From Thermoproteota archaeon (GTDB taxonomy: Archaea; Korarchaeota; Korarchaeia; Korarchaeales; Korarchaeaceae), in the NCBI GenBank assembly GCA_015522685.1, contig WALU01000009.1, positions 1 through 51,290 on the forward strand: a stretch of DNA of 51,290 nt. Reading direction: 5' to 3'. Below the pieces are notes generated by a model. That model did no database searches. It saw nothing but the letters and a program-made list of their open reading frames with translations, and was not told where the DNA came from. The position numbers were made by a program, and so were the translations under genes. Positions 10,114 to 14,231 of this stretch are shown piece after piece; position 1 is the first letter of the stretch, and every line of letters starts with the position of its first letter.

Positions 10114-11535
10114 ATGAAAGTGTGGAGAAAGGGATTTATCATTCTCTTAATAGCTTTATTATTCAATACCCTCCCTGTAATGTCCCAAAATCAATGGGAC
10201 TTGGGAATAGATACCGTTAAGCTGTTTCCCATAAATGGTGAGGTTCAGCAAGGTGAACCATTATACCTCTCAGTTTATATCAGGAATCATGAGCGCAAGC
10301 TATTCTCCGGTATAGTAAAGGTCAACGTGTATGTGGATGGCTCACTGAAGGTCGTGGAATTCTGGGATATAGGTAATTTATCGAAGGGCTCGATACCTAT
10401 ACCAGCTGGAGGTTATACTACTATTACAACTGAGATGAAGACATCCAACCTTACAGTAGGCATTCATGACCTCCGTGTTTCAATAGAGGTAAGGGATTAT
10501 GAGGACCCCAGACCAGAGGATAACTCTTTCAGCCTGAAGTTCTCAGTAATACCCTTTGTCAATGCATTTATGGAAGCTAAGAAGGAGATGATCCAAGGAA
10601 GGGAGTATTATATCAAGGTTCATGTCCCTAATCCTTCAGATGAGCCTCTGAATCTTAAGGTGAGGCTCTTCGTTAATGAAACGGAAGTCGACTCCAAGGA
10701 TATATATGTGCTTCCTAGGTCAATATCCTTAGCGGAATTCCCATATACTCCAAGGAGAACTGGAACCGAGGAGATAAAAGCTACTATAACAAAAGAAGGA
10801 CAGCCTTACAGTCAAGCATCGATATCTATTAAGATAAGGCCATCCTGCGATATGAAGATAGAGGAGATATTCATCTCGAGTAGTGTTTTTAAGGGAGGTC
10901 CTCTCAGAGGAAGGATAAGGATATATAATAATGGATTCTCCTCCTCAGCAGTAAATCTCACTATTCAGGTTGACAGTAAAACTGTTAATTCGCAGGTATT
11001 AGGGATAATACCCCCAAAGAAAGATAAAGTTATAGAGTTGGTAGTACCTACAATTAATATAGGCGTCGGGAATCATACTCTGACCGCATTAGTTTATCCG
11101 ACGGATGCCACGGACTTGGATGAATCGAATAATATTTACTCTCTCTCCTTCATTGTAAAGCCTCTTCCAGTTTCCCTCTCAATTGGAGGAGAGAATGGGA
11201 TAATTAGGACTAATGTAACGAACATGGGCGAGGTGCTTGGTAACTTCGACGTGATACTGCTAGAGAAAGGGAAGAAGGAGATAGATCGCAGTTCCCTAAC
11301 TTTGGAGCCTAAGACAAGCCAAGTAGTTATATTTAAGGGGATTGAACCAGGGAACTATTCTGTAATCGTTCTAAGTTATGGATTTCAAGTGGCTTCGGCT
11401 AATATTTTTATAGAGCACTCTCTACAGAGGAATGCTACATCTCCATACTGGACGCTTGTCTTAGGGATCTTGGTATCAGTTATCTTATATCTAGCATTCA
11501 CAAAGTGGCATAGAAAGAAGTGGCCATCTTCATGA
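10114..11535 (+). CDS. Cell-surface protein with tandem CARDB/Ig-like domains and C-terminal TM anchor
   Basis: Signal peptide; repeated patterns such as VGIHDLRV...DPRPEDNS and VGNHTLTA...DESNNI; C-terminal hydrophobic stretch followed by KWHRKKW. Confidence 0.75.
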   Translation: MKVWRKGFIILLIALLFNTLPVMSQNQWDLGIDTVKLFPINGEVQQGEPLYLSVYIRNHERKLFSGIVKVNVYVDGSLKVVEFWDIGNLSKGSIPIPAGGYTTITTEMKTSNLTVGIHDLRVSIEVRDYEDPRPEDNSFSLKFSVIPFVNAFMEAKKEMIQGREYYIKVHVPNPSDEPLNLKVRLFVNETEVDSKDIYVLPRSISLAEFPYTPRRTGTEEIKATITKEGQPYSQASISIKIRPSCDMKIEEIFISSSVFKGGPLRGRIRIYNNGFSSSAVNLTIQVDSKTVNSQVLGIIPPKKDKVIELVVPTINIGVGNHTLTALVYPTDATDLDESNNIYSLSFIVKPLPVSLSIGGENGIIRTNVTNMGEVLGNFDVILLEKGKKEIDRSSLTLEPKTSQVVIFKGIEPGNYSVIVLSYGFQVASANIFIEHSLQRNATSPYWTLVLGILVSVILYLAFTKWHRKKWPSS

Positions 11536-11603
11536 AATTTTTATCTCCCTTGTAAGTTTGATTCATTACTTCTATTAGAAATTGCTGAAGAAATTGATGT
11601 AGT

Positions 11604-11732
11604 ATGAGGGAATATGCCTATCTTGTAATGCTTCTAATAGCTCTTGTCCTCTTCTTAATGCTTGATCCGTTACTTTATCCAGCTGTAGCTGGCCTCGGTT
11701 ATTTCATTATATGGTGGAGGGTTAGAAAGTGA
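11604..11732 (+). CDS. Small two-TM membrane protein (42 aa), missing from the ORF track
   Basis: MREYAYLVMLLIALVLFLMLDPLLYPAVAGLGYFIIWWRVRK; its stop overlaps the next start (GTGA). Confidence 0.6.
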   Translation: MREYAYLVMLLIALVLFLMLDPLLYPAVAGLGYFIIWWRVRK

Positions 11733-12118
11733 AGGGAACCTTGGAAAGAGCACTTCTTATGGCGACTGGCCTCTCTATAATAGCTTATGCTGTAGCTGGA
11801 CCTATAGGTAATGCAGCCAATTTATTTGAGGAAAAAAGAGCAATAAATTGCGTAAACATAGCATTGAAATCGCTTGATTTGGCAATAACGAATTCCATTG
11901 GAGGAGGAACCGCTAGCGGGTATGTATACTTCCCATGTAATGTGATCTATGAAGCTGAAGGAACAGATGTAAGGGTGAGGTCTGGAAATTACTCGGCCTC
12001 AATCACATATCCCTTTGAAGTGGAAGGAGGTGGAAAAGCCATTGGTTATGGTAGGTTCGCTGCCATTTGGAGAGCCAAATATATATCTATAAGGTGGGAG
12101 AGTTGGAGGAAGGGTTAA
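11729..12118 (+). CDS. Pilin-like protein with a putative class III signal peptide
   Basis: MKG-TLE followed by a hydrophobic helix, an amphipathic helix and a beta-rich C-terminus. Confidence 0.5.
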   Translation: MKGTLERALLMATGLSIIAYAVAGPIGNAANLFEEKRAINCVNIALKSLDLAITNSIGGGTASGYVYFPCNVIYEAEGTDVRVRSGNYSASITYPFEVEGGGKAIGYGRFAAIWRAKYISIRWESWRKG

Positions 12119-12309
12119 GCTTCACTTTATCTGGAATTGGAGTTTTAGCCTTAATGGTCATTATATTCTTCTCTCTAAATCTTATTATTCCTCTAGTGAA
12201 GGCGAATAAATGCTGTGAGAGGAGAAAGATCGCTGAAAAGCTACAATCTCTATCTAATTACCTCCATATAAATGCAGCCAGCTATATAAAATGGGTGAGA
12301 AGATGCTGA
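12103..12309 (+). CDS. Small N-terminally anchored hypothetical protein (minor-pilin-like)
   Basis: TTG at 12103 after GGTGGGAG; MEEGLSFTLSGIGVLALMVIIFFSL hydrophobic N-terminus. The track ORF starts at 12067. Confidence 0.5.
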   Translation: MEEGLSFTLSGIGVLALMVIIFFSLNLIIPLVKANKCCERRKIAEKLQSLSNYLHINAASYIKWVRRC

Positions 12310-12386
12310 CGGAATTGATGGAGGGAATCATCACGATGGTTCTTCTGGTTCTAATGCTAGCTGCCTTAGTAGGTGCCTTGAGTTGA
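12303..12386 (+). CDS. 27-aa single-TM peptide, missing from the ORF track
   Basis: MLTELMEGIITMVLLVLMLAALVGALS; it fills the gap exactly and overlaps both neighbours (TTGA with the next gene). Confidence 0.5.
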   Translation: MLTELMEGIITMVLLVLMLAALVGALS

Positions 12387-12664
12387 AGTGGATTATCGCT
12401 TCTATATCAGCCTTAATCTTAATATCAAGCTTCCTTGCCTTACCTTCTCGCATATATCCTGAGTGGCAAGTTTTTAGTAAGGCTTATGCATGCTCTAAAT
12501 CGGTTAGAATACTGAATGAGCTTGGCTATAGAGTCTTGCTGGGAGAGAGTGGGGATGGAGAGCTTACGGTAAGATGTATTTTTAATAATAAGAAGATCTA
12601 TTACTGCCTGTTCATTCCAGGAGCACAACCTTCTAGGTATCTAGCTGTGGTGGGTAGGCCTTGA
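12383..12664 (+). CDS. Hypothetical N-terminally anchored or secreted protein
   Basis: Hydrophobic N-terminus; 4-nt TTGA overlaps on both sides. Confidence 0.6.
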   Translation: MKWIIASISALILISSFLALPSRIYPEWQVFSKAYACSKSVRILNELGYRVLLGESGDGELTVRCIFNNKKIYYCLFIPGAQPSRYLAVVGRP

Positions 12665-13479
12665 AGGAGATATATCTGCTAATAATAGCTCTGATGATGT
12701 CCTCTGTCATATTAAGCGTCCCTGAGAGGGATAGTGATTGGGTCTTATACAGAGGCGAATTAAGGATGTGGGAAATGCATGCAGAGGCTGATTCCTTGAA
12801 AGCAAGATCTATCATATTCGCCAGGTATTCTCTAGATTCCTGGTTATACAATGCGAATGGTAGCTCGTGCTATGCCGACCCTCCACCTCCGAATGGTTCG
12901 GCATTTCTAACGCTTCTAAGCAAGGATTGGGCAAGAAAGGAATTTTCATATAGAGGATCAATCTCATACAACATTTTTAGGTCGAAGGAAGGACAGAAGT
13001 CAGATCCTTTATTTGGTGGGCAATGCAGGGAAGGAGGTATAGGACTAGGGATTATGGGAAAGATGAGCATAGTAGATAACATGCTCTATATGAAAGCTGA
13101 TAGAAATTTCAAGGATCAAGCATGCCAGCCGACAGCATATTTCTCCTTGAAGGGATCTTTAGATTACTTAAAGCTTGAAACCTCTAGAATAGTGAGAAGA
13201 TCTTTCCTCATCAATAAAAACTTATCAGATGCCTTGAATGATATTAAATTGAACTTGAAGCATCTAGTTATTAAAATGAGAGCTAGACTCCTTCCTGAGG
13301 GCATAGATCTCAAGCTTTACTATTATACGAAAGTGGTTCTGAGGAGAAATGGAAAAGAAATCTCATTCGTATTCAATGTCATACTTAGAGATAATTTAGC
13401 TGAATATATACATCTTGGAAGGATCATGAGAAAATTTTACTGTATCAGGAACTGGGAAGTCAAGGTGAGAACTTCATGA
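12661..13479 (+). CDS. Hypothetical N-terminally anchored or secreted protein (272 aa)
   Basis: Hydrophobic N-terminus, several Cys, translationally coupled to the upstream gene. Confidence 0.65.
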   Translation: MKEIYLLIIALMMSSVILSVPERDSDWVLYRGELRMWEMHAEADSLKARSIIFARYSLDSWLYNANGSSCYADPPPPNGSAFLTLLSKDWARKEFSYRGSISYNIFRSKEGQKSDPLFGGQCREGGIGLGIMGKMSIVDNMLYMKADRNFKDQACQPTAYFSLKGSLDYLKLETSRIVRRSFLINKNLSDALNDIKLNLKHLVIKMRARLLPEGIDLKLYYYTKVVLRRNGKEISFVFNVILRDNLAEYIHLGRIMRKFYCIRNWEVKVRTS

Positions 13480-13536
13480 AAGTTTCTCCTCATCACTATA
13501 ATTGTCTAAGCCGTAATCTAAACAGGCCTCAGTCCC

Positions 13537-13836
13537 TTGATGAGATCAACCATCTACATTGCATCTTTAATAATTGCTTTGTTAATATCTCCTCTCATGG
13601 TTAGCGCCCAAGATCCATTTTCCGGCTTTCAGAATGCCATTCAAGATCTAACCCAGGATATCATAAATATCCTAAACACCTTGAAGGAGTCAGCCATTTC
13701 TATCGGGAGAGTAATGGCCGGCACCTTAATAGCTCTGGGCGTTATCCTATGGGCAAGCGATATATTCTCTTACAAGGGAAAGAGGCTTATACTTGCAGGT
13801 ATAATACTACTGATACTTATGGAACTGATCCCATGA
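13537..13836 (+). CDS. Putative TrbC/VirB2-like (CedA1/TedC-like) pilin
   Basis: Cleavable-type signal (…LMVSA|QDP), amphipathic helix, two hydrophobic helices separated by SYKGKR; 99 aa. Confidence 0.5.
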   Translation: MMRSTIYIASLIIALLISPLMVSAQDPFSGFQNAIQDLTQDIINILNTLKESAISIGRVMAGTLIALGVILWASDIFSYKGKRLILAGIILLILMELIP

Positions 13837-14231
13837 GTGTTAATAGATGTCCATGAAGAGAATAGGTAGGTTCCATTCGGCCTTTGTTAAGATAGTAGTT
13901 TTATCGATCTCATTATTCCTAGTAACTTTACCTTCCATTCTCTTGCTTGAGATGAGAATACATCTTTATTCAGTAGTAGATTGTTATATCATGAGCTGGG
14001 AGCCTGAATGTCTCCTACTCTAGATCAATTATATTGAGCGTTTCCAGAGAAATTGAGGCCCTTGAGTCGAGAACTCTCATAGGATTTGACCTAAGTGATT
14101 TACAGATATTACCTTTCTCTAAGGTGAAAAAGGTACTTTCAAGCCATAGCGGACCTTTTTCGAGATCCCTCCTCTAAGCTCATTCTATTCCATTCTATTC
14201 TATTTTTATTGTATCAAAGCGAGGGATACAT

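Follow-up and report, generated by a model that had tools for sequence, protein, structure and literature searches.

What do the small, membrane-anchored proteins encoded in a run of overlapping genes in a Korarchaeal genome contribute to, and where is the machine that would use them? The genes lie at positions 10114-13836 of a 51,290-nucleotide stretch (hereafter the window) of contig WALU01000009.1 from the Thermoproteota archaeon assembly GCA_015522685.1 (genome G000; 1.48 Mb, 92% complete), a member of the class Korarchaeia. Eight co-oriented open reading frames (ORFs), named A, B, C, D, D2, E, F and H, occupy this region on the + strand (Table 1), and all eight carry an N-terminal hydrophobic segment (mean Kyte-Doolittle hydropathy over 17 residues of 1.8-2.9). 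A prediction made from the sequence alone had described the region as one surface-appendage operon containing a chain of pilin-like proteins and a VirB2-like pilin; its observations were confirmed, and its interpretation was partly supported. We find that the region joins two units, a coupled module B-C-D-D2-E-F and a pair formed by A and H. We hold it to be probable that the proteins of the module are accessory subunits, akin to minor pilins or pseudopilins, in a Tad/Epd-like type IV filament of Korarchaeia, with A and H standing apart from it.

A conserved module of overlapping genes

The module is compact: B and C overlap by 4 nucleotides (nt) at a GTGA, C and D by 16 nt, D and D2 by 7 nt, and both D2/E and E/F by 4 nt at a TTGA. 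The original count of six overlapping ORFs with three 4-nt junctions is exact once the mini-ORF D2 is included among the six, and the sequence MKGTLERALLMATGLSIIAYAVAG cited with it is present. Compared with the closest relative (G019), the ratio of non-synonymous to synonymous substitution rates (dN/dS) was 0.19 for B, 0.06 for C, 0.27 for D, 0.15 for D2, 0.06 for F and 0.05 for H; for E, dS was saturated and dN was 0.19. By these rates, all seven proteins tested are under purifying selection.

The order B-C-D-(D2)-E-F was kept in 12 of 12 loci that span the module, out of 14 examined, the other two (L017 and L018) being broken by contig ends. The counterpart of D2 terminates on the start codon of E in 12 of 13 loci and is 27 amino acids (aa) long in six of them, and B counterparts of 41-45 aa lie directly upstream of C in loci L019, L020, L021 and L044. 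Because purifying selection is accompanied by conserved order and overlaps, B to F and H are real genes and not chance ORFs.

The module is linked to type IV pilus genes in relatives

Comparison of gene order across relatives, one of the checks proposed with the original prediction, also placed type IV pilus genes beside the module. In a genome of the same genus (G015), the module lies directly downstream of genes for a 686-aa PKD/Ig protein, a 228-aa protein, a 521-aa T2SSE-family ATPase (Pfam T2SSE, E 1e-10) and a 302-aa membrane protein; a candidate pilin gene is divergent to B, and a 78-aa helical-hairpin protein, H', closes the module. The layout in G012 is the same. In the two annotated sister-species loci, the module adjoins genes for a FlaI/PilB-type ATPase, a TadC-like protein and a short Flp-like pilin.

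The linkage extends to other genera. In genus g3 (locus L079), genes C, D, E, F and H' are followed by a prepilin peptidase gene (Peptidase_A24, E 8.5e-11), two genes for small membrane proteins and the ATPase gene, and then by genes for a short pilin, a polytopic protein and a weakly MinD/ParA-like protein. The ATPase gene lies within about 4 kb of the module in genus g2, and in genus g5 the order is C...F-H, with H beside the pilin gene in four of four genomes. Some g5 matches to C and to the pilin run through in-frame TGA or TAG codons (G024:C25:2823-3206, G047:C134:28483-28866, G045:C85:1507-1887, G047:C134:30820-31026 and G024:C32:63397-63591), which could reflect cross-frame alignment, sequencing errors or recoding.

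A published census also records part of such a locus. For Korarchaeum cryptofilum OPF8, Table S4 of Makarova et al. 2016 (PMC4858521) shows a TadC (arCOG01811), an ATPase (arCOG01818) and a PKD protein, together with three adjoining small ORFs that carry no arCOG, no type IV pilus (T4P) mark and no FlaFind or PilFind call in the rows shown. These three ORFs match E, C and the pilin candidate of G012 in size and position; counterparts of D, F and the hairpin protein are absent from the same rows. Gene neighbourhoods of this kind support the assignment of B to F to a type IV pilus-like system whose ATPase, in the present genome, is encoded elsewhere.

Protein C is related to candidate pilins and begins at their mature start

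The candidate pilins of these loci belong to a family found in 31 of the 40 genomes of the class, with a mature part of roughly 60-75 residues and a Glu at +6 after the Gly in 15 of the 17 sequences aligned. When the C family (alignment A2) was compared with this family (alignment A7) using hhalign, the match reached 90% probability (E 1.6e-6) over 58 columns, against 1.3% for F, 2.7% for D, 0.9% for E and 3.9% for H. Since these other four proteins score only 1-4%, the match of C to the pilins is not just one of hydrophobic composition. On this profile evidence C is a pilin homologue, a paralogue with an added globular domain. Met1 of C aligns to pilin position +1 (MKGTLERALLMA on ITGTLEQALLIA), and Glu6, at the position of the pilin Glu, is invariant in C, as are C41, DLAI and GGG.

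The start of C, MKG-TLE, had been taken for a class III-like leader, which it probably is not. Immediately ahead of the T/S-phi-E motif, relatives have G, E, A or L; because the would-be -1 position varies in this way, a class III site is not conserved, and the ORF begins at the mature pilin start. No start codon lies upstream of C before an in-frame stop, by ORF definition, in this window or in four 'type II' loci. C is translated from the mature pilin +1 position, so that it should need no leader cleavage.

Some of the candidate pilins begin in the same place. In three 'type II' genomes they start at +1, with MINTME.. and MINTLE.. in G015 and G006, where a stop stands 2-3 codons upstream, and MQQTIE.. 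in G012 (Table 1). The parts of the published census available to us (PMC4858521) list the +1-starting pilin gene of K. cryptofilum without a FlaFind or PilFind call. A single phrase search for 'leaderless pilin(s)' and like wording, too narrow to prove that none is published, found no paper that applies such a phrase to pilins.

C-like proteins have a narrow distribution. The family is present in 31 of the 35 other genomes of the taxonomic family and in none of four from two neighbouring families. A C profile run against 1.84 billion representatives gave 18 matches at E <= 0.001, 12 of which are small, C-sized proteins, and a word-based search with C returned only 5 proteins. The six large repeat proteins among the profile matches (He_PIG, PKD, FG-GAP) aligned in several short stretches, and we read them as compositional or beta-strand matches, not as a domain family. 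In the ESM Atlas, the neighbours of C are archaeal hypothetical proteins of 121-140 aa at 0.94, with Class_IIIsignal in 12% of the members of two clusters; we use these neighbours as a lead only.

Conserved features of proteins D, E and F

Proteins D, E and F each keep their own set of residues. M1 is invariant and E2 nearly invariant in the D alignment (A5); Q29, K33, C65, Y74, C75, I78 and P79 are invariant in the E alignment (A6); and in F, for which 17 of the 20 other genomes of the genus have a homologue, four cysteines and M1-x-E3 are invariant. The AlphaFold2 model of F, built from 13 sequences (predicted local distance difference test score, pLDDT, 89.7; predicted template modelling score, pTM, 0.80), consists of a membrane helix followed by two lobes, each made of long helices and three long strands.

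Complex prediction of C, D and E with F gave interaction scores (ipSAE) of 0.80, 0.78 and 0.80, which fell to 0.00 and 0.00 when the partner was replaced and to 0.68 when C was replaced. Because 0.68 remains with C replaced, the score is not specific to this set of proteins, and we give the predicted complex no weight on either side of the binding question.

The rest of the machine lies on other contigs

By definition, the core of an archaeal type IV filament has four parts: an ATPase and a platform protein, together with a class III signal peptidase and pilins that bear a leader. As had been anticipated, the motor ATPase is encoded away from the module, on contig C21. This 461-aa ortholog is 52% identical to the G015 ATPase, and the T2SSE family is above its Pfam cut-off in both genomes; its best solved relatives are afGspE (2oap, 1e-11) and FlaI, with VirB11 and CpaF lower. 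Beside it are genes for a 313-aa TadC-like protein, a 227-aa membrane protein and an 824-aa Ig-like protein, and then an SMC-like gene.

A prepilin peptidase (Peptidase_A24, above cut-off) is encoded on contig C3. The candidate major pilin, on contig C54, is a 75-aa protein that begins MALRKRRG/ITGTLEQALLIAVTLAFFLG..., the slash marking the predicted cleavage site here and below; its mature start is ITGTLEQALLIAV and its site RRG/ITGTLEQ. This class III site in the genome's own candidate pilin stands in contrast to C, D, E and F, where the scan for class III signals that had been proposed as a check found no conserved G/A site. A wider search suggested at the same time, for PilB/TadA, TadC, PibD and VirB4/CedB elsewhere in the genome, was answered by the ATPase, the TadC-like protein, the peptidase and a CedD-like ATPase described below, but gave no platform protein matching Pfam T2SSF.

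A proposed role for the module

How might these parts work together? The N-terminal helices of proteins C, D, D2, E and F would fix them in the membrane, where they would make up a priming or tip complex with F as the large capping subunit and C as the pilin-derived member. The ATPase and platform would then polymerise the short headless pilin onto this complex, with Glu6 of C taking the part of the conserved N-terminal pilin Glu. A would be a separate anchored surface protein, and H or H' a constant small partner.

Several results weigh against casting the module as accessory pilus subunits. The idea of a chain of pilin-like proteins held for C but found no sequence likeness for D, E or F, whose hhalign values against the pilin family are those given above. 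None of C to F has a conserved G/A at -1, so that they fail the usual class III test, and FlaFind and PilFind call none of the K. cryptofilum counterparts listed in the published table (PMC4858521). Searches of Pfam, NCBIfam and PHROGs found no family for B to F.

The comparisons of profile and fold proposed with the original prediction brought the hhalign match of C and weak pilin matches for F; Foldseek returned nothing for F (against the PDB, TM-scores <= 0.2) or for H. A wide VIA-align search with the F model ranked two unrelated proteins first (best Z 6.8, next 5.5). Type IV pilins or pseudopilins account for 10 of the 50 rows listed (PilX, K122-4 pilin, competence pilin, GspK, PilA5, PilE, TTHA1219, gonococcal pilin, EpsI/J and XcpV/W), aligned at F residues ~28-157 or ~155-272 with Z 4.1-4.9, which is below the tool's informative level and may mirror a common arrangement only. 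We take this resemblance of the modelled fold to pilins as suggestive, not as proof.

The remaining adverse points concern the machine. Pfam Flp_Fap matches one of the 17 candidate pilins (E 0.018), and the C54 gene is itself a putative major pilin. A Pfam T2SSF search of this genome yields no platform protein, the 313-aa platform candidate on C21 has no Pfam match of any kind, and the platform candidates as a whole lack a T2SSF match. The module is physically apart from the motor genes in this genome.

Part of this evidence would also suit a different job within the same machine. B to F could form a membrane-embedded sub-complex for assembly, alignment or anchoring, functionally comparable to PilN/PilO or archaellar FlaF/FlaG, with C as a pilin-derived membrane adaptor. 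All of the proteins are N-terminally anchored; B, D2 and D are too small for a globular head; D, E and F have no pilin sequence signals, and there is no conserved class III cleavage motif; and the genomic linkage is as good for a sub-complex as for filament subunits. The 58 N-terminal residues of C that are homologous to pilins from +1, Glu included, are nevertheless easier to reconcile with insertion into a filament than with a static anchor. The gene set, four or five small coupled genes with a large one last, also resembles the minor-pilin sets GspH-K and TadE-G. The weak fold matches of F include pseudopilins and, among the 50 rows listed, neither PilN/PilO nor FlaF/FlaG. We judge the sub-complex unlikely, though it is the strongest competitor of the accessory-subunit assignment.

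A and H form a pair separate from the module

The original prediction had treated A to H as a single operon, and this did not survive the comparison of gene arrangements within the genus. By tblastn, 11 same-genus genomes, including this one, have A, B-F and H in that order (8 contiguous, 3 split by contig ends). In eight others H comes directly after A and B-F lie elsewhere; there the A-H pair occupies the same neighbourhood, between an AlaX-like gene and the spermidine synthase gene. Since A stands directly beside H in those eight genomes, A and H are, on the evidence of gene order, one conserved pair, and B-F are a module of their own, lying between the two in the branch of the genus to which this genome belongs.

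Signals around A point the same way. TTTTT occurs 3 nt after the A stop and ATATTTAA lies 23-30 nt upstream of its ATG, which together suggest that A has its own transcript; these T-runs and TATA-like words were read by eye from the sequence. A contains the predicted CARDB domain (Pfam PF07705, E 5.8e-12, 46.1 bits against a gathering score of 22.7, in three stretches). Full-length homologues of A occur in 19 of 20 same-genus genomes, with weak partial matches only elsewhere: A is specific to the genus and always stands beside H or beside B-F-H.

H is far more widespread, being found once in 35 of the 40 genomes of the class and in all 23 high-quality ones, a distribution that marks it as a single-copy core gene of the class. 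Its homologues in the databases are all labelled hypothetical, and B to H as a group have no significant Pfam family and no family in NCBIfam or PHROGs. Its gene comes after F in genus g5 and in 11 genomes of the genus studied here; in eight others of this genus A immediately precedes it. Outside this genus and g5 it adjoins Pelota, DnaG, nucleotidyltransferase and TtuA-like genes. In a genome from another family of the phylum (G029, locus L036, 9318-9906 (-) and 7642-9107 (-)), an 87-aa ORF whose start is typically class III-like (..KSNKG/VSEVIGEALLIAASISLF) comes before H, and RadB-like and RadA genes come after it.

In other genomes, H' takes the place of H after F. The two proteins are alike in position and architecture only (hhalign 16% with a single sequence, 4% between profiles), and H' was not found in this genome. 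The module always ends in a hairpin protein, either H or an H' that seems unrelated to it, and H is for this reason a probable membrane or filament-associated partner of the module.

Is H a DNA-transfer pilin?

The AlphaFold2 model of H (pLDDT 85.5) has helices at residues 3-19 (the signal), 28-72 (45 residues) and 77-96, with a basic loop, SYKGKR. A signal followed by two hydrophobic helices and a short basic loop is the form of VirB2, TrbC, CedA1 and TedC pilins; TedC is described, in the portion of Beltran et al. 2023 available to us (PMC9905601), as a Sec signal, a disordered stretch and a helical hairpin with a basic loop. H could then be a Ced/Ted-like (VirB2-type, lipid-bound) subunit of a DNA-transfer pilus, with the module and the CARDB protein serving at the tip or in adhesion and a CedD-like ATPase providing power.

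Beyond the TedC-like layout, a few matches lean towards a DNA-transfer pilus. ESM Atlas neighbours of H include TrbC and T4SS_pilin clusters at 0.83-0.84 (a lead only), and Pfam TrbC matches six of the 19 members of the H family, with a best E of 0.013 and all scores far below the 27.9-bit cut-off; T4SS_pilin matches one of 19. The H model aligns to CedA1 pilus chain 8dfu_B over 61 residues (Z 6.4, root-mean-square deviation 1.8), although that chain ranks 42nd and 417 chains reach Z >= 5, so that the hairpin fold fits hundreds of unrelated chains equally well. H also lies beside RadA/RadB-like genes in one f4 genome.

The CedD-like ATPase itself is encoded across the class. In this genome the gene (contig C49:80427-82163; L120 5428-7164) encodes a protein of 578 aa that carries a pair of membrane helices at the N-terminus and a HerA/VirB4-like ATPase domain. 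Of the NCBIfam models CedD scores highest (E 3e-44, 151.6 bits, where the cut-off is 600), and CedB, TraC and VirB4 come next. The gene is present in 28 of the 28 other Korarchaeia genomes searched. Wherever it shares a contig with H it lies 15-214 kb away, and in this genome it is on another contig.

Against a DNA-transfer role, no pilin appeared among the PDB sequence or profile matches of H or among its NCBIfam matches. No VirB6/CedA/TedA-like polytopic protein or VirB4-like ATPase is encoded beside H in the window or in the 10 other loci examined. The module, for its part, is tied to a type IV pilus ATPase and not to a type IV secretion system (T4SS). The VirB2-like pilin of the original prediction is thus a likeness of architecture only, in the predicted sequence features and the model, and a DNA-transfer pilus built around H seems improbable. 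Weakest of all is the notion that the ORFs are unrelated small envelope proteins, partly spurious and together by chance, to which the missing family annotation of B to H and the shortness of several ORFs might point, but which we consider very improbable given dN/dS values of 0.05-0.27, order and overlaps kept across the genus, C, F and the hairpin kept across genera, and the recurring linkage to T4P genes.

We also looked for a hidden VirB4 among six DUF87 matches. Three proved to be HerA-NurA pairs (one with Mre11 and Rad50); the remaining loci are one with a 398-aa partner that has no Pfam match, one beside a presenilin-like protein, and the CedD-like gene itself, and none is near the window. 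On contig C26 (L122 3648-6206, -), an 852-aa HerA-like protein, encoded beside a NurA gene, is interrupted by an intein (Pfam Intein_splicing, 1.4e-16).

Features of the region

The coordinates of the genes are collected in Table 1, together with two further ORFs and the candidate pilins that begin at +1. D was listed as an ORF from 12067; the TTG at 12103 is likely its true start, because GGTGGGAGAG lies 2 nt upstream and the codon aligns with the Met of relatives. ORF G is probably not a gene, since it has no hydrophobic segment and no conservation past the closest relative, G019.

The 58-aa ORF downstream of H resembles a secreted protein of about 540-560 aa, but over the N-terminus of that protein alone. 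The gene for this protein lies in relatives, together with a carbon-nitrogen hydrolase gene, between H and the spermidine synthase gene (L034 9191-11570). Because only 395 nt remain in place of these two genes here, the ORF looks like a remnant left by deletion.

Table 1. Genes and ORFs of the region, and candidate pilins of relatives that begin at position +1 (positions in the window unless a locus is named)
Feature	Position	Strand	Product	Remarks
A	10114-11535	+	CARDB surface protein, 473 aa	N-terminal signal-like segment, CARDB/Ig-like repeats, C-terminal membrane anchor, basic tail; hydrophobic segments 6-25 and 442-465
B	11604-11732	+	Hydrophobic micro-protein, 42 aa, first of the coupled module	Hydrophobic stretch 1-31; stop overlaps C start (GTGA)
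C	11729-12118	+	Pilin-like protein, 129 aa	Pilin-type N-terminal helix, then small cysteine-containing beta-rich domain
D	12103-12309	+	~68 aa, N-terminus MEEGLS	One membrane helix and short helical tail; likely start TTG 12103
D2	12303-12386	+	Single-helix micro-protein, 27 aa	MLTELMEG..., then hydrophobic helix; overlaps D by 7 nt and E by 4 nt
E	12383-12664	+	N-terminally anchored protein, 93 aa	Conserved cysteines; hydrophobic 1-22
F	12661-13479	+	N-terminally anchored protein, 272 aa, the module's largest	Two helix-plus-three-strand lobes predicted
H	13540-13836	+	Helical-hairpin protein, 98 aa (99 aa from TTG 13537)	Sec-type signal peptide ..MVSA/QD
ORF G	13476-13604	+	Doubtful gene	Overlaps F stop (ATGA); AAGGTGA 8 nt upstream
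58-aa ORF	13847-14023	+	Possible deletion remnant	
+1-starting candidate pilin	L115 1462-1698	-		Stop 2-3 codons upstream
+1-starting candidate pilin	L114 1474-1677	-		Stop 2-3 codons upstream
+1-starting candidate pilin	L045 10526-10789	+		

Implications

Korarchaeia are represented by one enrichment-grown member with ultrathin filamentous cells. For the sole pilus-like system of this class, the analysis offers a first parts list: a pilin, an ATPase, a platform, a peptidase, a six-gene accessory module and a hairpin partner, each as a candidate of the strength given above. Genome censuses detect pilins by their leader, and a pilin paralogue and candidate pilins that start at +1 escape FlaFind-type scans. 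If these proteins truly enter a filament, leader cleavage would not be obligatory for type IV assembly, and ideas on the part played there by the N-terminal Glu and the free amino terminus would be affected.

A bolder version can be built on the start at +1 of C in every genome read and of the candidate pilin in three type II species, K. cryptofilum among them. Korarchaeia might build a type IV filament from leaderless subunits, independent of the prepilin peptidase, in which H or H' is TedC/VirB2-like and the CedD-like ATPase provides a link to DNA exchange. We put this forward tentatively and think it unlikely to hold as a whole. The class-wide hairpin protein and the CedD-like ATPase are in any event candidates for DNA exchange beyond Sulfolobales and Thermoproteales.

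Comparison with known systems

For H alone, the comparison is with TedC, CedA1 and VirB2, with which it shares a cleavable Sec signal, two hydrophobic helices, a short basic loop and ~75 mature residues. Unlike them, it has no significant sequence match or discriminating fold match and no adjacent TedA/VirB6- or VirB4-like genes, and stands instead beside type IV pilus or housekeeping genes.

The accessory-subunit assignment of the module takes its model from the tip and priming role of GspH-K. Like GspH-I-J-K of the type II secretion system, the module has four to five coupled genes of which the last has the largest product, with an extra lobe in what may be a pilin-like fold, and GspK (3ci0_K), EpsI/J and XcpV/W are among the weak fold matches of F. 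These matches reach a Z of only 4.1-4.6, however, and the module further differs in having no sequence likeness to these proteins, no leader peptides, an archaeal host and no secretin.

Further parallels are the Tad/Flp system, where TadE, TadF and TadG act as minor pilins or pseudopilins, and the Epd minor pilins. Shared with them are a short, putatively headless candidate pilin, a conserved Glu near the mature N-terminus, the run of small N-terminally hydrophobic proteins ending in a larger one, and, in the g3 locus, a dedicated peptidase, a FlaI/TadA-type ATPase and small genes for putative TadB/C-like platform proteins. Differences are that neither the module nor the pilin has an above-threshold match to Flp_Fap or to a Tad/Epd family, that a conserved G/A cleavage site is missing from C to F, with C starting at +1, that the ATPase is nearest to afGspE and FlaI and not to CpaF, and that the genes are spread over four contigs here. 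The relationship between Epd and Tad pili, and their headless pilins, are treated in the portion of PMC13705601 available to us.

The last comparison is with the clade 4 T4P loci of TACK archaea and their 'minor pilin sets' (PMC4858521). Table S2 of that census places the K. cryptofilum ATPase in T4P clade 4, and the Korarchaeal locus is listed there with TadC, ATPase and PKD protein; the counterparts of C, E and the pilin appear in the rows shown without arCOG, T4P mark or FlaFind/PilFind call. In the clade 4 and Epd/Tad literature as far as it was available, with bioRxiv supplements outside reach, we found no description of the Korarchaeal module, of a tie between C and the pilin, of leaderless pilin-type N-termini or of the hairpin partner. 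The same census proposes that three to four untraceable extra components of Desulfurococcales loci are minor pilins (PMC4858521), and on the parts of it available to us, the kind of system described here is one already known: the clade 4 T4P loci with their untraceable minor pilin sets.

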